This document shows positions 29,674 to 59,897 of a DNA stretch of 64,000 nt, in pieces (within the stretch, counting starts at the first letter, position 1; every line of letters starts with the position of its first letter). The stretch lies in the NCBI GenBank assembly GCA_964643315.1, contig CAZXSR010000003.1, positions 88,506 to 152,505 on the forward strand, in the 5' to 3' direction. The stretch comes from an uncultured Ferruginibacter sp. GTDB taxonomy: Bacteria; Bacteroidota; Bacteroidia; Chitinophagales; Chitinophagaceae. Position numbers and translations under genes: made by a program. Below the pieces are notes generated by a model, which ran no database searches, had not been told where the DNA came from, and saw only the letters and a list, made by a program, of their open reading frames with translations.

Positions 29674-32600
29674 ATGAAAATACAAGTATTAGTGAGTCGC
29701 CTCATCATGGCAATGGTGCTGTTATTTTTATCAGCCCTTTTTGCTTTTGGGCAGCGACCAACAACAAATTTTTCTGCTACTCCAGCAGCAGGATGTGCCC
29801 CTTTACTGGTAAATTTTACAGACCAATCTACGGGTAATCCAACATCCTGGAGATGGACCCTCGGTAATGGCAGTCAATCTAGCAACCGCAATCCATCTGC
29901 CGTTTACATGAACCCCGGAACTTACACTGTTAAGCTGGTTGCCACCAATGCTGCAGGGTCAGACTCCTTGATACGTACAAACTATATTACAGTTTATTCG
30001 AAGCCAAACATACAGTTCTCGGCATCCAATAATAACGGTTGTGGCCCACTTACTGTATCATTTACAGACAATAGCTCGGCAGGCTCGGGAACAATTCAAA
30101 CTCGCCAATGGGATTTTGGTGATGGAACTTTCAGTACCGAAGCAAACCCGGTTCATACATATACAAGCCAGGGTAACTTCAATGTTTCTCTTATGGTATC
30201 AAATTCATTTGGTTGCTCGGCTTCTTCAACCCAAAATGGATATGTTCAAGTCATACCCAAACCAACAATATCATTCTCAAGCAACAATACATCATCTTGC
30301 TCATTCCCATTTGATGCCACATTCCAAAATCAAACTACGGCATCCGGAGCGATCAGTTTCTTATGGCAGTTTGGAGATGGCACCTCATCAACGGAGATCA
30401 ATCCTACACACAGCTACAGAAATCCTGGCTCATATAGTGTAAAATTGAAAGCAACAGGTGTAGGTGGTTGCAGCGATTCTCTCAGCAGAAATAACTATAT
30501 AAACATACAAAACAATGTTGTTTCATTTACAGCTCCGGATCGGGCTTGTGTAAATAGTTTAATACAGCTTACCGGTACTTCAAGCCCAACTCCCAGCTCA
30601 ACACTATGGAGATTTAGCAATGGAACAACAACCAATGACCCAAGTCCGGTTGTTTCCTTCAGCACACCCGGAATATTCTATATCACCAAAATTGACAATT
30701 TTGGAGGATGTATGGACTCCGTAACCCAAAGTATTGAAATTGTACAAAAACCCGTTTCAAATTTTGCAGGAACAAATTTATCTTCTTGTCGGGCTCCACT
30801 TGTAACAAGTTTTACATCAAATACTAGCAACACCACAAGTTATTTGTGGAATTTTGGTGATGGCCAAACATCTAATGGCGCAAACCCACAACATACTTAC
30901 ACGCAGGAGGGCTCATATGATGTTTCACTTATTGCGGGCAACAGTGGTGGTTGCTTTGATACACTTATAAGAACAGCGTACGTAACAATACAGTTTCCTG
31001 TTGTGAGTGTGACACACTTTCCGCAGCCCGGTTGTGTTCCATTGACCGATACTTTTAGTCTTTCTGTTACAGGAGGAGATGCCGTAGCTTCTTATCTATG
31101 GAATTTTGGTGATGGTGGCACATCAACCGAATCAACACCTACACACACTTTTAGCCAAAGAGGCAAGTATGATATTCAGGTAATAATAAGAACCGCAAGT
31201 GGCTGTACAGATACTGCATTTTACCCGCAGGCAGTAAAAGCGGGTAATAAACCTAACCCGTCTTTTGAAGCAGTAACCACAACAACATGTGCTTCTGAAT
31301 CAGTAACATTCAATAACTTAACGCCTGCAGCTGATTCCGCTGATAACTGGCTTTGGATATTTGGAGACAATACGTTCTCTTCAGCAATGTCACCAAGTCA
31401 TCTATTTATTGATACCGGTATTTTTGATATTCAATTACTGGCGTTCGATAATGGATGCCCATCCGATACTTTTATACGCCCACAGTACATAACCGTGTTG
31501 GCACCAATAGCAAAATTTTCTGTCATCAATAATTGTGCGCAAAGACTAACCAAAAAATTCAACGACTTATCTATTGGTGCGGAAAGCTGGCTTTGGGACT
31601 TCGGCGACGGTATCACATCAGATGAACAAAGCCCCGAGCATACCTACAACAGTTCAGGCAGATACACAGTAAAACTAACGGTAAACAACGCAACAAATAA
31701 TTGCAGTGCGACAAAAACATTTAATATTCTGGTTTCCAATGAGGTGCCTGATTTTGAGGCAAATCCCTTGGCCATTTGCCGTACCAACTCCACTAATTTC
31801 AGGGTTACGAATTTTACTCCCGACTATTTTAGTGCATTTACCTGGAGATTCGGAGATGGTATTACCGGATCTGATACAGCAGTTACAAAAATCTACTATA
31901 CAACCGGAATTTATACAGTAAAACTGATGAGCAGAGACAAAAATGGATGTAAGGATACTATAACCAAAAACAATTACATACAGGTCAATGGACCCAAATC
32001 TTTGTTCTCTGCAACAAATACCAATAATTGCATCAATAGTCTGGTAGCATTTACGGATAATTCCACGGGAGATGGTAGAAATGCCATCGTTCAGAGAATA
32101 TGGAGTTGGGGTGATGGGTCAAGTGATACCACAATCAATCAAACTTCTCTTTCACATCAATATCTCACTAATGGTAACTATACTGTCAGGTTGAGAATAA
32201 TTGACGCTTTTGGTTGTGAAAATATTTTGAGTCGTCAAAACTATATCAGAATCAATTCACCGGCCGCTAATTTTTACACGGCTGATACATTGGCCTGTGT
32301 CAACTCAAACATCAATTTAATAAACAGTACAACCAGCCCTAATGTAAGCTTCAGTTGGAATTTTGGAGATGGTCGTACTTCAAATGTCGCAGCACCTGTA
32401 TTGTCTTACCCCTCTCAGGGCACCTACTCAATTACATTGTATGTTACCAATAGCATTGGATGTACAGATTCACTACGCAGGGATAATTACATTAAAGTAA
32501 AAAATCCGATTGCATCATACACTGCAAATACCTATGAGGGCAATTGTCCTCCTCTTGTTGTAAACTTCAACAACACATCACAAAACTATTTGTCACAACT

Positions 32601-34494
32601 TTGGGATTTTGGTGATGGTACTTCTACAAATACCGATAACCCGTCTCACTTTTATGCGATATCCGGAAATTATACTGCAAAAGTAACAGTTACCGGTCCC
32701 GGTGGATGTACGGATACCTATCAACATGCAATTATTGTACATGGGCCGCGTGGCACGCTCAATTACTCAAATTCTCCCGGTTGTACTCCATTGTTAAAAA
32801 CCTTACAGGCTAACGTAATCAATACTACTGAAATGGTATGGGATTTCAACGATGGGAATACTTTGCAGAGCATGGTAGCTACACAAAACCATACATACAC
32901 CACAGAAGGTGTTTACCTTCCAAAACTATTATTAAAGGATGCCACAGGTTGTATCGTTCCGGTAAGCGGAAGGGACTCTATTCGTGTAAATAATTTGCAT
33001 CCTGCATTTGAAATGGGGAATCATAGTTTTTGTAGATCCGGCAATGTTGTATTCAATAATACGAGTGTTGCTACAGATGCAATTTCATCTTACTTGTGGA
33101 ATTTTGGAGACGGCACCACATCATCAGAACAACATCCAACACACGTATACGCAAACCCTGGTAATTATATTCCCACTTTGACTGTGCAAACAGTAACCGG
33201 TTGTTCTGGAACTTACCAATCATCAGACACTGTAACAATATTAAGTATCCCTGACGCCCAGATCTTACAGAGTGCCACGGAAGGTTGTGAGGGCATTGGT
33301 GTTGTATTCAACGGAAGTGTGAATGGATTGGCTGCAGCTTCTGTGCTTTGGAGTTGGGACTTTGGAAACGGTAACACATCCACTGTTCAAAATCCGCCTG
33401 CTCAAACATTCCGTACAGTTGGAAACAATCGTATTACAGCTACAGTTACTAATGCAGCAGGTTGCTCAAATTCCTTAGAAGCTTTTGTGATGGTGCATCC
33501 AATTCCAACAGTGGATGCAGGACCGGATACTTTTTCTTGTCGTATGATCGGTATTCGATTGCAGGCAACCGGTGCTGATATCTATAATTGGTCACCAGCA
33601 ATAGGATTATCTTGTATAAATTGTGCCAATCCGCTTGCTAACCCAACAACCGGCTTATATTATCGTGTAACTGGGAAAACCAATTTTGGTTGCCAGAACA
33701 TCGACTCTGTTTATGTAAGTGTAATAAACCCTTTCACATTATCTGTCAGTCCTCCAGATTCTGTTTGTAAAGGAAATTCAAAACAATTATCTGCTTCAGG
33801 CGGTTACAGATATACTTGGAGCCCAAATACAGGTTTGGATAATCCAAACATTGCCAATCCAACAGCCACGCCTGATGTTACAACCATATATAATGTGGTA
33901 GCAACAGATGAAAAAGCCTGTTTCACTAAATCCAAAGTAGTTCCAATAACAGTGCACAATAACCCTACAGTAGATCTGGATGAGGAAACTACAGTAACTG
34001 TTGGCAGAACGATTGATCTGATTCCCAGAGTTTCAAGAGATGTAATAGATGCCCGTTGGTCACCAACGACATCTATATTCAGAACTGATTTTCCCGGCAT
34101 CACAGTAAAGCCATCAGAAACTACCACATTTACGATAGATGTATTCAATAGTCATCGTTGTACTGCTTCGGACAGAATCACTGTGAATGTAATGTGTAAC
34201 AACTCAAATATGTTTATACCAAACAGCTTTTCTCCTAATGGTGATGGTATGAACGATATTTTCTATCCAAGGGGTACAGGTATTTTTACGATAAAGAGCA
34301 TGCGTATTTTTTCGAGATGGGGCGAAGTAATATACCAAAGGAATAATTTTAAAGCCAATGACCCCACAAAAGGGTGGGATGGATTGTTCAAAGGACAAAA
34401 AATGAATGCAGATGCCTTTGTTTACACGGTAGAAGTGGTATGTGAAAATAATACAGAGATGACTTTCAAAGGAACTGTAACACTTATTCGCTAG
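29674..34494 (+). CDS. PKD-repeat surface protein with gliding-motility (CHU_C, T9SS type B) C-terminal domain
   Basis: 15 WxFGDG-type PKD motifs counted; C-terminal FIPNSFSPNGDGMND...SRWGE...GWDG...GTVTLIR; start set at MKIQVL (ORF extends to 29602). Confidence 0.92.
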   Translation: MKIQVLVSRLIMAMVLLFLSALFAFGQRPTTNFSATPAAGCAPLLVNFTDQSTGNPTSWRWTLGNGSQSSNRNPSAVYMNPGTYTVKLVATNAAGSDSLIRTNYITVYSKPNIQFSASNNNGCGPLTVSFTDNSSAGSGTIQTRQWDFGDGTFSTEANPVHTYTSQGNFNVSLMVSNSFGCSASSTQNGYVQVIPKPTISFSSNNTSSCSFPFDATFQNQTTASGAISFLWQFGDGTSSTEINPTHSYRNPGSYSVKLKATGVGGCSDSLSRNNYINIQNNVVSFTAPDRACVNSLIQLTGTSSPTPSSTLWRFSNGTTTNDPSPVVSFSTPGIFYITKIDNFGGCMDSVTQSIEIVQKPVSNFAGTNLSSCRAPLVTSFTSNTSNTTSYLWNFGDGQTSNGANPQHTYTQEGSYDVSLIAGNSGGCFDTLIRTAYVTIQFPVVSVTHFPQPGCVPLTDTFSLSVTGGDAVASYLWNFGDGGTSTESTPTHTFSQRGKYDIQVIIRTASGCTDTAFYPQAVKAGNKPNPSFEAVTTTTCASESVTFNNLTPAADSADNWLWIFGDNTFSSAMSPSHLFIDTGIFDIQLLAFDNGCPSDTFIRPQYITVLAPIAKFSVINNCAQRLTKKFNDLSIGAESWLWDFGDGITSDEQSPEHTYNSSGRYTVKLTVNNATNNCSATKTFNILVSNEVPDFEANPLAICRTNSTNFRVTNFTPDYFSAFTWRFGDGITGSDTAVTKIYYTTGIYTVKLMSRDKNGCKDTITKNNYIQVNGPKSLFSATNTNNCINSLVAFTDNSTGDGRNAIVQRIWSWGDGSSDTTINQTSLSHQYLTNGNYTVRLRIIDAFGCENILSRQNYIRINSPAANFYTADTLACVNSNINLINSTTSPNVSFSWNFGDGRTSNVAAPVLSYPSQGTYSITLYVTNSIGCTDSLRRDNYIKVKNPIASYTANTYEGNCPPLVVNFNNTSQNYLSQLWDFGDGTSTNTDNPSHFYAISGNYTAKVTVTGPGGCTDTYQHAIIVHGPRGTLNYSNSPGCTPLLKTLQANVINTTEMVWDFNDGNTLQSMVATQNHTYTTEGVYLPKLLLKDATGCIVPVSGRDSIRVNNLHPAFEMGNHSFCRSGNVVFNNTSVATDAISSYLWNFGDGTTSSEQHPTHVYANPGNYIPTLTVQTVTGCSGTYQSSDTVTILSIPDAQILQSATEGCEGIGVVFNGSVNGLAAASVLWSWDFGNGNTSTVQNPPAQTFRTVGNNRITATVTNAAGCSNSLEAFVMVHPIPTVDAGPDTFSCRMIGIRLQATGADIYNWSPAIGLSCINCANPLANPTTGLYYRVTGKTNFGCQNIDSVYVSVINPFTLSVSPPDSVCKGNSKQLSASGGYRYTWSPNTGLDNPNIANPTATPDVTTIYNVVATDEKACFTKSKVVPITVHNNPTVDLDEETTVTVGRTIDLIPRVSRDVIDARWSPTTSIFRTDFPGITVKPSETTTFTIDVFNSHRCTASDRITVNVMCNNSNMFIPNSFSPNGDGMNDIFYPRGTGIFTIKSMRIFSRWGEVIYQRNNFKANDPTKGWDGLFKGQKMNADAFVYTVEVVCENNTEMTFKGTVTLIR

Positions 34495-34519: not shown

Positions 34520-34556
34520 ATACGGGCTTGTACGTAGTACAGGCCCGTATTTTTTT
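34520..34556 (+). terminator. Intrinsic terminator between PKD/CHU_C gene and porP/sprF
   Basis: ATACGGGCTTGTAC-GTA-GTACAGGCCCGTAT plus T tract. Confidence 0.85.
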
Positions 34557-34661
34557 GCATCAAATGAAATTTTCTTAAAAAAAAGTTAAGTAGGGTAAAA
34601 TAAAGTTTTCCATGGGTCGTTTTTAATGTACCGTATCACAAACGATCTAAAATCCAAACCC

Positions 34662-35690
34662 ATGAAAAACGTAACCACTCTAGTATTGGCATTTACCGCT
34701 ATGTTCGGTACACAAGCCACAAAGTCTCAAGACGTTCATTTCTCCCAAATGTTTGAAACTCCAGTTCTGAGAAATCCTGCGATTTCCGGATTATTCAACG
34801 GTGATGTTCGTGTTCAAATGGTACACCGTTCTCAGTGGAGCACAATCGAATCTGCTTTTCAAACTACATCTGTAAGTGCTGAAATAAAAAAGAAAATCGG
34901 AAACGGTGATGACTTTATCACAATCGGTGGTCAGTTGTTAAATGACAAGGCTGGCTCTGCAGCTTTAACTACCACTCAGGTTTCTCCTACAATTAATTAT
35001 CATAAGTCAGTAAGCGCTGAGAGAAACAGCTACCTGTCTCTTGGTTTCATGGCTGGTGTTGTTCAACGTAAAATTGACAGAAGTAAAATGACTACCAACA
35101 ACCAATTCGACGGAGATCGTTTCAACAGTTCTCTTGCTGATGGTGAAACAAATTTAATTCCTTCATACACTTATTTTGATGGTAGTGTTGGAATGAGCTT
35201 CAGCTCTCAGTTGGGTGAAAACGAGCAGAACAACTTTTATGTTGGTGCAGCTTACCACCACTTCAACAAAGCAAAAAAGAATTCTTTTTATCAATCAATG
35301 GATAATCCTGTTATTTCTAAAAAAGTATTTTCCGGTGGTGTTCACATGGAACTTGCCAACAACTCATCTATCACTGTTCAGTCTGATTACAGCGTTCAAG
35401 GTGCCAGCAAAGAAATCGTTTTGGGAGCTATGTATACCATGAACCTCGACAATAACGAAACTACCAAATACCGTTTTCACTTTGGATCTTATGTAAGATG
35501 GAACGATGCAATCATCCCTGTTGCTAAAATTGAGACTCGTGGTATGTCAATCGCTGCAAGCTATGATGCCAACATTTCTCAATTGAAAAACTATAGCAGA
35601 GGAAACGGTGGATTTGAAATCTCTGTTACTTACCAAAAAGCAAAAAAGGTAAACAGCAGTCTGGACGCTGTAAAATGTCCAAAATTTTAA
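34662..35690 (+). CDS. PorP/SprF family T9SS outer-membrane protein
   Basis: QDVHFSQ...NPAISG, HRSQW, LNDKAG, SYD...GGFEISV; start set at MKNVTT. Confidence 0.92.
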   Translation: MKNVTTLVLAFTAMFGTQATKSQDVHFSQMFETPVLRNPAISGLFNGDVRVQMVHRSQWSTIESAFQTTSVSAEIKKKIGNGDDFITIGGQLLNDKAGSAALTTTQVSPTINYHKSVSAERNSYLSLGFMAGVVQRKIDRSKMTTNNQFDGDRFNSSLADGETNLIPSYTYFDGSVGMSFSSQLGENEQNNFYVGAAYHHFNKAKKNSFYQSMDNPVISKKVFSGGVHMELANNSSITVQSDYSVQGASKEIVLGAMYTMNLDNNETTKYRFHFGSYVRWNDAIIPVAKIETRGMSIAASYDANISQLKNYSRGNGGFEISVTYQKAKKVNSSLDAVKCPKF

Positions 35691-35742
35691 AATGATAAAA
35701 AATATAATTAACATATTCGTTTTTATGGATTGTTTGGATACC

Positions 35743-35775
35743 AACCCACCCCGCTTCTGCGGGGTTCGTTGCTTG
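35743..35775 (+). terminator. Hairpin/terminator after porP/sprF
   Basis: ACCCCGC-TTCT-GCGGGGT stem (35748-35765); U tract weak. Confidence 0.6.
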
Positions 35776-35817
35776 TAAAAAAATTAAACAGAAATCAGGA
35801 TATTATATGCATTTACA

Positions 35818-35825
35818 TAACTTTG
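35818..35825 (+). promoter_or_regulatory. -7 promoter element for peroxiredoxin gene
   Basis: TAACTTTG 16 nt before ATG; no clear -33 box. Confidence 0.6.
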
Positions 35826-35841
35826 CAGGAAAATAAAAATA

Positions 35842-36318
35842 ATGGCATTACAAATTGGTCAAAAAGCTCCAAACTTCTCATTATACAGCAGCAAAAAGGA
35901 AAAAATCTCTTTGGGTGATTTTGCAGGAAATAAAAATGTACTGATTCTGTTCTTTCCGCAATCATTTACAGGAGTTTGTACAAAAGAATTATGCTCTGTA
36001 AGAGATGATATTGGAAGATACAATCAAGCAAATGCCGAAGTTTTGGGAATTTCGGTTGATTCTATCTTTACGCTGGCTAAATTTAAAGAGGAGCAACAAT
36101 TGAATTTTACACTTCTCAGCGATTTTAATAAAGAGGTTTCCACATCCTATGAGAGTATTTATGCATCTTTCACAGATATGGACATGCGGGGGGTAAGTAA
36201 AAGATCGGCTTTTATCATTGATAAACAAGGAGTTATACAATTTGCACAGGTACTCGAAAGTGCAGGAGACATCCCTGACTTTGAAGCGATCAACGAAACA
36301 CTTAACAGAATCCAATAA
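35842..36318 (+). CDS. Peroxiredoxin (AhpC/TSA, redoxin)
   Basis: FFPQSFTGVCTKE peroxidatic motif, LLSDFN, RSAFIIDK. Confidence 0.92.
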   Translation: MALQIGQKAPNFSLYSSKKEKISLGDFAGNKNVLILFFPQSFTGVCTKELCSVRDDIGRYNQANAEVLGISVDSIFTLAKFKEEQQLNFTLLSDFNKEVSTSYESIYASFTDMDMRGVSKRSAFIIDKQGVIQFAQVLESAGDIPDFEAINETLNRIQ

Positions 36319-59670: not shown

Positions 59671-59756
59671 ATATTTTTTTTAGACCAGCAATTTAATTTT
59701 TGAATGCAAAAAATAAAATGACTTAAAGTTGTCTTTAGAGTGACTTTATACAAAAT

Positions 59757-59813
59757 GTAAAGCCGGATAGAAATCCGGCTCGCATCTATTATCCAATATC
59801 CTATGAAAAACCT
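59757..59813 (-). ncRNA. Candidate small RNA with anti-start-codon 5' seed
   Basis: TAGATTTG -7 box (59818-59825), then AGGTTTTTCATAGGATATTGGATAATAGATGCG, then perfect AGCCGGAT-TTCT-ATCCGGCT hairpin and TTTACATTTT. Confidence 0.55.
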
Positions 59814-59897
59814 GATGCAAATCTATTGTGTAAAAAAAGTAATAAATATGATCATTGTAGTACATCAAACTGATTATAATCACTTTTTATTTTTTGG

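Follow-up and report, generated by a model that had tools for sequence, protein, structure and literature searches.

The porP locus and the element in its 3' UTR

The window, which is the whole 64,000 nucleotide stretch of Ferruginibacter sp. DNA that was analysed, carries a porP/sprF-family gene with a short element behind its stop codon and a second element of similar appearance near 59.8 kb. The features relevant to this analysis were as follows.

34618..34637, + strand: conserved promoter-like box CGTTTTTAATGTACCGTATC (CGTTTATAnnnTACCGTA in orthologs) upstream of porP, from the sequence and ortholog 5' regions
34652..34671, + strand: predicted target site in the porP translation initiation region (TIR), AUCCAAAC + CCAUGAAAAACG, from duplex prediction and the whole-mRNA MFE
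34662..35690, + strand: porP/sprF-family gene, 342 aa (Pfam PF11751, E 9.8e-39)
35717..35742, + strand: single-stranded seed/core, 26 nt past the porP stop codon
35742..35782, + strand: terminator-type hairpin CAAC..ACCCCGC uucu GCGGGGU..GUUG with a weak U-rich tail, from folding
59743..59813, - strand: the 59.8-kb element, a member of a multicopy sRNA family (family covariance model 76.5 bits, E 5e-17)
59818..59825, - strand: sigma-A -7 box TAGATTTG of the 59.8-kb sRNA, from the sequence and its recurrence upstream of family copies

porP is the cognate type IX secretion system (T9SS) outer-membrane partner of the upstream cargo gene (29675-34494), which encodes PKD repeats and CHU_C. The box at 34618..34637 may be an ECF-sigma-type promoter, having 'CGT' at -10, and a CGT -10 box has been reported for T9SS genes of Flavobacterium psychrophilum (PMC9723704). 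The start codon (34662-34664) lies inside the predicted target site, and the motif ATCC(A)AAC was kept in the orthologous porP TIRs. The porP-type TIR carries ATCCAAAC.

Behind porP, an invariant 22-nt core GTTTTTATGGATTGTTTGGATA (also written GUUUUUAUGGAUUGUUUGGAUA) occupies 35719-35740, and CGTTTTTATGGATTGTTTGGATA was found at 35718-35740 where the first-pass annotation had placed it. An extended hairpin follows at 35742-35771 (CAAC-CC-ACCCCGC-TTCT-GCGGGGT-TC-GTTG, -18.1 kcal/mol). The element has the GC-rich hairpin of a Rho-independent terminator with a U tract that is weak in the window copy (GGGGUUCGUUGCUUGU), and the porP hairpin was not flagged in a simple terminator scan of the window because the T run of this copy is poor. 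The window copy has the core consensus used to define the family, UUGUUUUUAUGGAUUGUUUGGAUAA, followed by the variable GC hairpin. Scanning the window sequence for promoters returned no TAnnTTTG, sigma-54-like or ECF-like box before the core, in agreement with the earlier statement that this copy has no convincing promoter of its own. Rfam gave 0 matches across the whole window at the gathering level and only terminator-like noise on the element at an E-value threshold.

Transcription was assessed using low-depth assembled Logan contigs from 8 river metatranscriptomes, data that are unstranded, may include DNA carry-over and normally lose small RNAs. RNA contigs start at 34642/34648, near the porP promoter box, and contigs from two runs continue from the porP CDS into the core, reaching 35735 and 35742. 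Termination may be leaky, as the window U tract is poor and one RNA contig spans 35764-35958.

Conservation across the Ferruginibacter clade

Within the Ferruginibacter clade of the Chitinophagaceae, about 120 species-level genomes had the core unchanged at the porP 3' end, counted as at least 119 stretches of species-representative genomes, and 11 of 12 close porP orthologs matched it exactly. The first-pass annotation had named a lack of conservation behind orthologous porP genes as a refuting condition, and this condition clearly failed. PorP proteins were only 50-62% identical across the carriers, and the flanks and the hairpin sequence diverged while the core stayed the same. With 22/22 nt kept across a family-level clade, the element ranks among the most conserved noncoding sequences that could be hoped for. 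It lies on the same strand, a few tens of nt 3' of the porP/sprF gene or of what remains of its promoter (26 nt from the stop codon in the window, 31-76 nt in relatives, median 50 nt in 66 loci). Exact 20-mer matches in a Saprospiraceae stretch (L087) and a 'Bacillota' MAG (L126) were dropped as chance or mislabelled because hairpin and context were missing.

The hairpin was present in 121/121 element copies with 8-20 pairs, showed double-sided (compensatory) changes at 6 of 7 consensus pairs, and was followed by a clear U run in most orthologs. A covariance model built from 60 orthologous copies, with the window copy left out of the training set, recovered window positions 35717-35782 at 45.3 bits (E 1.7e-9). 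The next match in the window scored 16 bits, making the porP element single-copy there. Many orthologs also carry a putative 5' stem-loop upstream of the core (CAAAAGUC/GAUUUUUG, CUAACA loop) that is absent from the window. RNAalifold found nothing for this stem-loop, the complementarity of its arms (6.87 of 8) barely exceeded that of A/T-rich shuffles (6.43), and it was left as unproven.

The porP CDS itself was lost in 32 of 98 element loci, which nevertheless kept the porP-type promoter box, a TIR-like 5' segment and the element, with the promoter sitting 170-280 nt upstream of the element. Retention of the element in these loci implies a role beyond the adjacent CDS. Among cultured carriers, Ferruginibacter paludis CECT 8366 (L085) has porP followed by the element, and Ferruginibacter sp. 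HRS2-29 (L091) has a locus without porP.

Complementarity of the core to the porP start region

The core was predicted to pair with the start region of its own gene in two helices, GUUUGGAU(A) with (U)AUCCAAAC in the porP 5' UTR and UUUUUAUGG with CCAUGAAAA across the start codon, with a U.G wobble at the start codon. The predicted duplex joins 34652-34671 to 35718-35739 by 19 bp and runs through the start codon and the first codons of porP. When the ATG start regions of all window ORFs of 100 aa or more were compared (352 candidates), the porP TIR formed the best duplex, at -20.6 kcal/mol, and 0 of 2000 seed shuffles reached the energy of the porP duplex. Start regions were the informative comparison; an energy scan over all 60-nt windows was not discriminating, with the porP site at about rank 57 of 6394 (about the top 1%). 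Evidence from this single genome is moderate, since plain local alignment over the whole 128 kb placed the porP start region only third-best.

The comparative evidence for the complementarity was decisive. Across 64 distinct orthologous porP TIRs, ATCC was present in 83% (7-12% of controls), ATCCA in 67% (3-4%) and ATCCAAA in 41% (0%), the same two helices recurred across orthologs, and duplex energy was -16.1 kcal/mol as compared to -10.1 kcal/mol for controls. An unbiased scan of 1,107 TIRs, 70 of them from PorP genes, placed PorP at 15 of the first 20 and 40 of the first 50 ranks of predicted targets (AUC 0.89, Mann-Whitney p 2.5e-28), p-values that overstate independence because orthologous TIRs are phylogenetically related. 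The near-match to the reverse complement of the porP initiation region noted at first pass is therefore real, far exceeds chance, and its complement is conserved. The seed was invariant while the target sites varied in position and sequence, as one would expect if the seed acted in trans on several partners or had a protein partner.

Relationship to the 59.8-kb element

The transcript of the 59.8-kb element opens with the seed GGUUUUUCAUAGGAUAUUGGAUAA, followed by a hairpin whose loop GGAUUUCUAUCC is conserved and by a U run. Its -7 box, which corresponds to positions -12..-5 (PMC9723704), puts the start of the sRNA at A59813/G59812, and TAnnTTTG-N4/5-GG recurs upstream of many family copies. 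A degenerate pattern scan returned 121 copies, distributed over 86 stretches, frequently arrayed in tandem (1-4 or more copies) and with a taxonomic range wider than that of the porP element; searching through MlaD orthologs gave 5 loci, 1 of them informative. The family units are terminator-bounded, occur in the same genomes as the porP element and are driven by three promoter types (sigma-A, sigma-54-like and ECF-like), from which the transcripts begin exactly with the seed. The porP element differs in that it has no promoter of its own setting its seed at a transcript 5' end.

The first-pass annotation had noted a resemblance between the two elements and suggested that the porP copy could be a second family member. 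Within the window the resemblance is weak, with a local score of 18 that is equalled by about 40 window loci, whereas a one-to-one comparison of the two invariant seeds was significant (19 of 5000 dinucleotide shuffles, p about 0.004, with 3 gaps needed). The two families have a related two-part seed, GUUUUU-(C)AU-GGAU-..-UUGGAUAA, a likeness that would fit common descent as well as convergence on one target. Building covariance models from both elements and counting copies had been proposed as a check, and neither model significantly matched the other element; against the 59.8-kb family model (24-nt seed plus the loop GGAUUUCUAUCC hairpin) the porP element scored 9.3 bits (E 1.8, rank 9), as compared to 76.5 bits for the true member at 59743-59812. 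A single family was rejected at the model level because of this lack of cross-matching, and the elements were treated as two distinct families, one single-copy behind porP and one multicopy. The part of the suggestion that held is the related seed and the shared predicted target class, as porP TIRs are the top predicted target of the 59.8-kb family seed as well as of the porP element.

Comparison with known RNA regulators

FopS sRNAs of Bacteroides carry a single-stranded 5' seed GUGUUUUUCAUGG and a terminator and repress the translation of outer-membrane protein mRNAs at their TIRs, where they pair with the start codon; the family is multicopy and one member, FopS-14, is derived from a 3' UTR (PMC11697453). 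FopS/GibS of Bacteroides thetaiotaomicron (Rfam RF04319) comes from the same phylum, and GUUUUU(C)AUGG is common to the FopS seed and both window elements. The porP element resembles FopS in mode and not in membership, with a single-stranded GUUUUUCAUGG-type seed next to a terminator and predicted start-codon pairing. The RF04319 model gave no match to 35600-35850 at E up to 10 and none anywhere in the window at the gathering threshold (56 bits), while the 59.8-kb element gave a weak full-length match of 15.6 bits against that gathering score of 56. The 59.8-kb family is multicopy, like FopS. Compared with the FopS consensus the porP seed UGUUUUU-AUGG is missing one C (of CAU) and has a U.G wobble instead, and the second seed half (GGAUUGUUUGGAUAA) differs. 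The predicted target is a T9SS PorP/SprF protein as opposed to SusC for FopS, and the host belongs to the Chitinophagaceae as opposed to Bacteroides. Binding by the RRM protein RbpB is a further trait of FopS.

OppZ and CarZ of Vibrio cholerae are autoregulatory 3'-UTR sRNAs (PMC7398697). The porP element is likewise a 3'-UTR module that shares the terminator of its mRNA and is co-transcribed with porP, as judged from the unstranded, low-depth contigs. OppZ and CarZ inhibit translation by pairing with their own transcript, give negative feedback without a transcription factor and are defined by RNase E processing and Hfq dependence. Bacteroidota are not known to have Hfq. The OppZ target is an internal operon cistron, whereas the predicted target of the porP element is the TIR of a monocistronic gene. 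Unlike OppZ and CarZ, the porP seed is invariant across the whole clade and exists in standalone versions without a CDS.

Interactions between the 5' and 3' UTRs of one mRNA have been described for icaR of Staphylococcus aureus and hbs of Bacillus subtilis (PMC7821165; PMC3868564). As in these mRNAs, the porP 3' UTR contains a motif complementary to its own ribosome-binding region and closure of the mRNA is predicted; unlike them, porP has no Shine-Dalgarno sequence and the start codon itself would be sequestered. The icaR motif is poorly conserved even between staphylococci (PMC7821165), in contrast to the invariance of the porP core.

Proposed mechanism

The data make it somewhat probable that the element is a 3'-UTR-embedded, FopS-like anti-TIR RNA that gives feedback on porP. 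The regulatory module would consist of the roughly 26-nt unstructured seed and the mRNA terminator hairpin, transcribed from the porP promoter. Its active form may be a putative 3'-end fragment, of about 55-60 nt in this genome and longer in genomes with an extra block upstream of the core, or the seed still attached to the mRNA. The two parts of the seed would bind the porP TIR, GUUUGGAU(A) on (U)AUCCAAAC and UUUUUAUGG on CCAUGAAAA, burying the start codon. Translation initiation in Bacteroidota does without a Shine-Dalgarno sequence and needs an open A-rich window around the AUG, and therefore the seed/TIR duplex should block initiation. Such a block would result in negative feedback on porP, and the adjacent cargo gene may be controlled likewise in some genomes. 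The multicopy 59.8-kb-type sRNAs, with their related seed, are predicted to reach the same porP site from independent promoters.

Alternative explanations

The earlier idea of a functional 3'-UTR RNA directed against its own start region was strongly supported by conservation, and both forms in which it had been put, a feedback sRNA and a long-range 5'-3' closure, are viable. Under a purely cis mechanism of the icaR type the seed would fold onto its own porP TIR with no diffusible sRNA, and closure would block initiation and/or create or hide an RNase site. Folding the whole mRNA (1,141 nt) gave an MFE structure that joins 34652-34671 to 35718-35739 with pair probabilities of 0.8-1.0, although nearest-neighbour folding leaves out ribosomes and kinetics. 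Across orthologs, 15 of 30 MFE structures paired at least 10 TIR nt with the core as compared to 13 of 60 shuffled-core controls, which leaves half of the orthologs without the pairing. In two thirds of loci there is a physical link between the element and its target, icaR and hbs are precedents (PMC7821165), and a cis mechanism accounts for most of the same data. However, element and promoter are also kept in the loci that have no porP CDS to regulate, one side of the pairing is invariant while the other varies, unlike what a private helix between two partners would show, and independent sRNAs carry a related seed for the same porP site. For these reasons we favour action in trans over 5'-3' closure and regard a solely cis-acting element as a serious but rather unlikely alternative.

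It is improbable that the element is an independent sRNA gene that has a promoter of its own and just happens to lie between porP and ahpC. Most genomes have an upstream block, AAAAGTC(G/C)TGTnCTAACAA..AAAGATTTTTG, before the core, and GATTTTTG within it looks like the -7 box TAnnTTTG and is suitably spaced; the element also persists when either neighbour is absent. This block is missing from the window copy and from its closest relatives (L072, L095 and L127), the -7 box lacks a conserved 'TA', and a transcript starting from that box would be without the GUUUUU of the invariant seed. The loci without porP keep the porP-type promoter instead, and RNA contigs are continuous from the porP CDS.

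Still less likely is a site that acts as DNA, with TGGAT-N4-TGGAT and the inverted ATCCA serving as operators for a regulator of porP or ahpC-grpE. The core does contain the direct repeat TGGAT..TGGAT, the inverted motif lies at the other end of porP, and ahpC is downstream of the element in 64 of 87 loci. The complementarity, however, extends through the start codon and first codons, the core is always immediately 5' of a same-strand terminator hairpin, and terminator-bounded units under three promoter types start their transcripts exactly at the related 59.8-kb seed. In addition, 23 of 87 loci have the element and no ahpC, and a TAACTTTG box belonging to ahpC itself lies downstream of the hairpin.

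A tiny ORF (AUG GAU UGU UUG GAU, MDCLD...) or a leader-peptide attenuator for ahpC was judged highly unlikely. An AUG in the core does open a 17-codon ORF through the hairpin, but the core shows zero synonymous variation while the downstream 'codons' vary freely with the hairpin, one locus (L005) has ACG in place of the AUG, and the element occurs without ahpC. Finally, a porP terminator with chance similarity in AT-rich DNA would fit the window alone, where the likeness to the 59.8-kb element is within chance and the start-region match is third-best by alignment, yet this has virtually no probability left, as it is refuted by an unstructured 22 nt that is invariant in about 120 species while the hairpin varies, and only 0.01 core matches are expected in the window at up to 3 mismatches.

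Significance

The known control of T9SS genes is transcriptional, through an ECF sigma (PMC9723704), and the literature searched contained no RNA regulator of the type IX secretion system. The gene for the PorP/SprF-type partner of a giant CHU_C cargo protein appears to have, in its 3' UTR, a brake on its own translation, with further backing from a multicopy sRNA family that is connected to several sigma factors. The FopS principle, in which seeds mask the start codon where initiation occurs without Shine-Dalgarno sequences, would then reach environmental Chitinophagaceae beyond the gut Bacteroides, and the element may represent a second example class of 3'-UTR autoregulation outside Proteobacteria. 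The CDS-less loci constitute a natural experiment in the conversion of mRNA 3' ends into independent sRNA genes. The predicted partner is unambiguous, which makes the hypothesis directly testable in cultured Ferruginibacter.

More tentatively, and as a possibility well short of probable, the porP element, the 59.8-kb family and Bacteroides FopS/GibS could be branches of one phylum-wide 'anti-start-codon' sRNA class, with the Ferruginibacter clade showing an sRNA between two states. The seeds of such a class would have GUUUUU(C)AUGG as their basis, which is complementary to the AUG-AAA-AAC with which secreted and outer-membrane proteins start, and the class would fill the niche held elsewhere by anti-Shine-Dalgarno sRNAs. 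The element would be an mRNA-embedded autoregulatory 3' UTR in two thirds of species, and in the third that has lost the porP CDS, the promoter, 5' UTR and 3' element would survive as a free-standing noncoding RNA gene. On this reading a route by which an mRNA gives birth to an sRNA gene would have been observed, and type IX secretion would have the first RNA regulator of one of its components.

The porP locus and its transcription

The window belongs to a member of the Ferruginibacter group (Chitinophagaceae). Its porP gene encodes a type IX secretion protein whose nearest relative in the species-representative genomes is a PorP only 62% identical. The genuine start codon is the ATG at 34662 (MKNVTTLV...). 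Upstream lies the gene for a cargo protein of 1,600 aa that has PKD repeats and a CHU_C (type-B) secretion domain; 3' of porP come ahpC, for an AhpC/TSA peroxiredoxin, and grpE. The features of the locus are as follows:

34520-34550, plus strand: strong terminator (14 bp and a T run), directly 3' of the cargo gene
34618-34637, plus strand: porP-type box, window form CGTTTTTAATGTACCGTATC, about 35-50 nt 5' of the porP start
porP, ending at 35690, plus strand: porP/SprF-family type IX secretion protein (PF11751, E 9.8e-39)
35718-35740, plus strand: porP element core CGTTTTTATGGATTGTTTGGATA, between the porP stop and ahpC
35742-71, plus strand: extended GC hairpin, directly 3' of the core, from folding
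35819-35826, plus strand: good sigma-A -7 box TAACTTTG, 16 nt 5' of the ahpC start codon

Because the terminator ends the cargo gene, porP is probably transcribed alone and not in an operon with the cargo. The position of the TAACTTTG box 3' of the hairpin indicates that ahpC has a promoter of its own. The core begins 26 nt past the porP stop codon.

The organism was found in river and lake metagenomes and metatranscriptomes. The transcript data were assembled contigs of low depth, unstranded and with small RNAs not captured. In each of two RNA runs an unbroken contig linked the porP coding sequence to the core, ending at 35742 and 35735, which supports co-transcription of the element with porP. 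Contigs started at 34642 and, with adapter attached, at 34648, as fits a short 5' UTR holding the target site. One contig spanned 35764-35958, possibly reflecting a degree of read-through or an ahpC transcript with a start of its own. The first-pass annotation had seen no convincing promoter belonging to the element itself; the sigma-A -7 box (TAnnTTTG) was indeed not found 5' of the core in the window, and such a promoter fits poorly.

Conservation of the porP element

Of the 12 closest porP orthologs (53-62% protein identity), 11 had a letter-identical TTTTATGGATTGTTTGGATA on their 3' side. The twelfth (L005) carried a single change, ATGG to ACGG, and the remaining intergenic DNA of these orthologs could not be aligned. 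The core was not found at more distant porP genes (Ginsengibacter, Parafilimonas, Flavobacteriales). Scanning 185,579 species-representative genomes for the exact core pattern returned at least 119 stretches, almost all under the label Ferruginibacter or Chitinophagaceae, and there were at least 121 distinct core loci, nearly always one per genome. Among the matches listed, a strong hairpin of 8-20 pairs stood directly 3' of the core at every locus and varied in sequence from species to species. Double-sided compensatory changes occurred in 6 of the 7 consensus hairpin pairs, and a U run followed the hairpin in most copies. The unstructured segment is thus frozen in sequence and the terminator-type hairpin kept in shape only.

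A covariance model built from 60 copies, with the window copy left out, recovered 35717-35782 in the window (45.3 bits, E 1.7e-9), with any further hit at 16 bits or less; no Rfam family was found for the element. It is therefore a genuine, single-copy, previously uncatalogued conserved element.

Exact 20-mer matches in a Saprospiraceae MAG (L087) and a MAG labelled Bacillota (L126) had neither hairpin nor context and are probably chance. Genuine copies also sit under implausible organism labels on MAG records (Streptomyces griseus for L132/L245, several Chitinophaga pinensis), suggesting mislabelled bins.

Complementarity to the porP start region

The flagged stretch had been proposed to be complementary to porP's own start. 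The exact 22-mer core occurs once in the window, where 0.01 matches would be expected with 3 or fewer mismatches. When the 25-mer was locally aligned to both strands, the reverse complement of the porP start region was the third non-self locus (score 24). By RNA-duplex energy the porP site was only in the top 1% of all 60-nt windows. The 352 candidate ATG starts of window ORFs 100 aa or longer gave another picture: here the genuine porP start was the best predicted partner at -20.6 kcal/mol, an energy reached by none of 2000 seed shuffles. Taken alone, this single-genome evidence is suggestive, not conclusive.

Start regions were then extracted from 64 distinct porP orthologs. They vary widely, and most have (T)ATCCAAAC or AATCC 9-39 nt 5' of the ATG.

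Motifs and mean duplex energy with the core in start regions of porP, ahpC and other genes of the same loci
Feature; porP; ahpC; other, same loci
ATCC; 83%; 7%; 12%
ATCCA; 67%; 3%; 4%
ATCCAAA; 41%; 0%; 0%
Mean duplex energy (kcal/mol); -16.1; -10.1; -10.2

In the recurring predicted duplex the 3' half of the seed, GUUUGGAU(A), sits on (U)AUCCAAAC and the 5' half, UUUUUAUGG, on CCAUGAAAA, with the start codon inside the helix and a U.G wobble opposite its G. A label-free scan covered 1,107 start regions: each ORF of 120 aa or more in all the Chitinophagaceae loci retrieved contributed its first ATG. The 70 PorP genes among them accounted for 15 of the 20 best-ranked regions and 40 of the best 50 (AUC 0.89; Mann-Whitney p 2.5e-28, which overstates independence because the orthologs are related). 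Complementarity of the core to the porP start is thus conserved across orthologs, and the conservation of the core settles that it is more than a chance resemblance in AT-rich DNA.

The few non-PorP starts ranked near the top were adjacent CHU_C cargo genes of some species. In L068, L180 and L096 the start of the giant CHU_C/PKD cargo gene 5' of porP is strongly complementary to the core; at L068 (minus strand of the locus) the perfect matches are TCCATAAAAACA (12 nt) and GTTATCCAA (9 nt), at -23.6 kcal/mol. In the window the cargo start (29675) was not a strong candidate by duplex prediction.

Genomic context and loci lacking porP

Context was counted at 98 distinct loci with enough upstream sequence, among the matches listed. 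In 66 of them porP ended a median of 50 nt 5' of the core (range 31-76), and in 32 porP was absent at that position. Among the matches listed, ahpC lay 3' of the core in 64 of 87 loci, sometimes ~800 nt off, and was absent in 23. Because either gene can be missing, the element is tied to the coding sequence of neither neighbour.

At the porP-less loci two DUF1573-like genes and their terminator precede a porP-type box, CGTTTATAnnnTA(A)CCGTA, also common to porP upstream regions elsewhere. About 35-50 nt past the box comes a porP-like leader ending ..AAAATCCAACC(C)TATG, and 60-200 nt of poorly conserved sequence separate leader and element. In these species the coding sequence appears to have gone, with promoter region, 5' leader and 3' element persisting as a 170-280-nt unit. 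The CGT motif of the box is like the -10 element reported for T9SS genes; those of Flavobacterium psychrophilum have an ECF-sigma promoter class with a CGT -10 element (PMC9723704), and by analogy the box may be an ECF-sigma-type CGT promoter.

Nine porP-less loci (L102, L130, L144, L163, L177, L183, L152, L074, L140) have a possible 32-38-codon ORF from the retained porP-like start, with a recurring M(I/K)KG...(Y/C)FYQV(I/N)PA..K.LH ~170-280 nt 5' of the core. The palindromes GGTAATTACC and TACCAGGTAA fall in the same stretch, so that either a peptide or an RNA structure may be the conserved feature. At most orthologous loci a conserved block, AAAAGTC(G/C)TGTnCTAACAA..AAAGATTTTTG, lies ~20-50 nt 5' of the core; it is absent in the window copy, L072, L095 and L127. 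The block could be a processing site, a weak promoter or a 5' stem-loop (CAAAAGUC/GAUUUUUG, with pairing potential barely exceeding A/T-rich background).

A sister family with a related seed

A degenerate pattern found 121 copies of the 59.8-kb sRNA family in 86 stretches (L190-L276) from Ferruginibacter, Flavihumibacter, Terrimonas, Niastella and other hosts. Copies often occupy several contigs per genome and form tandem arrays of 2-4; two tandem copies lie 3' of one MlaD ortholog. In every copy the 24-nt GGUUUUUCAUAGGAUAUUGGAUAA is invariant; the other shared parts are an A-rich spacer, a hairpin whose loop GGAUUUCUAUCC is conserved, and a U run. The window copy, with its promoter box, occupies 59743-59825 on the minus strand. 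Their promoters differ in type, each setting the start at GG. By consensus only, the window copy has a sigma-A TAnnTTTG box:

59825-59818, minus strand: TAGATTTG, before the 59.8-kb element

Other copies have TGGCAYG-N4-TT, resembling sigma-54, or TGCAAC-N16-CGTC, resembling ECF sigma (both consensus only). Standing behind three promoter types, the one seed seems to be wired into several regulons. In RNA run X9, contigs (including one with a length of 1,768 nt and a depth of 13.6) share no more than the sRNA core (59759-59815) with the window and then leave it for unrelated flanks, so other members of this family from related organisms occur in river RNA samples.

The first-pass annotation had suggested that the porP element could be a second family member. 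Covariance models built separately for both elements spoke against a single family by that standard, since the cross-scores were low: the 59.8-kb model gave its window copy 76.5 bits (E 5e-17) and the porP element, single-copy in the window, 9.3 bits (E 1.8), and the porP-element model gave the 59.8-kb copy 13.3 bits (E 0.13). In the window alignment the 59.8-kb element scored only 18 against the 25-mer, equalled by ~40 loci. The invariant seeds nevertheless align as GUUUUU-(C)AU-(A)GGAU-..-UUGGAUAA, beating 99.6% of dinucleotide shuffles. Both elements turn up in the same genomes, sometimes on one contig, and the 59.8-kb sRNA is best described, from its sequence, as a sister family with a related seed.

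Duplex prediction with the 59.8-kb seed ranked the porP start first of 352 in the window, and PorP made up 16 of its 20 top targets across loci (AUC 0.93). The L014 porP, which has no 3' element, is an almost perfect complement to this seed (-27.1 kcal/mol), suggesting that porP genes without the 3' element are controlled by the 59.8-kb-type family only. This start, AATATCCAATATCCAAAAAAATGAAAAACC (L014:2955-3025, a Chitinophagales MAG), is a near-perfect two-block complement.

Bacteroides FopS (RF04319) was the only Rfam model aligning end to end with the 59.8-kb copy, at 15.6 bits, far under the threshold of 56. It appears as a match because the aligned seed starts alike (FopS consensus GUGUUUUUCAUGG; 59.8-kb GGUUUUUCAUAGG; porP element UGUUUUU-AUGG). 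FopS comprises 14 sRNAs, built of a single-stranded 5' seed plus a terminator, that repress translation of SusC-type outer-membrane proteins by pairing beside the start codon; one member comes from an mRNA 3' UTR, and the RRM protein RbpB binds FopS sRNAs (PMC11697453). The porP element would share this working principle without membership.

Proposed mode of action

The data directly show the sequence, its conservation, the conserved complementarity and co-transcription with porP; the mode of action built on them is inferred. The porP mRNA would extend from the CGT-box promoter to the hairpin and carry the seed in its 3' UTR. Its 3' end, released as a stable fragment or still attached, would pair with the initiation region, and seed pairing would block ribosome loading, giving negative feedback proportional to porP transcription by analogy with OppZ and CarZ of Vibrio, where 3'-UTR feedback has been demonstrated (PMC7398697).

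We favour action in trans because the seed stays fixed as its target sites shift in both position and sequence, because a third of species keep the promoter-plus-element unit without the coding sequence, and because free-standing sister-seed sRNAs address the same porP site. A viable alternative is a cis 5'-3' closure of the porP mRNA of the icaR type, for which there is precedent (PMC7821165). In the predicted fold of the whole 1,141-nt mRNA, 34652-34671 pairs exactly with 35718-35739 at probabilities of 0.8-1.0, and the minimum-energy fold contains this closure in half of 30 orthologous mRNAs versus 22% of shuffled-core controls. Readings of the element as a DNA operator, a small ORF, the ahpC leader or a plain terminator fit poorly.

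The original observation is confirmed, and its reading as a functional RNA element in the 3' UTR that targets the start codon of its own gene was right in substance. The porP element appears to be a new, highly conserved variant of FopS-like start-codon masking combined with 3'-UTR autoregulation, both known ideas here applied to a type IX secretion component.
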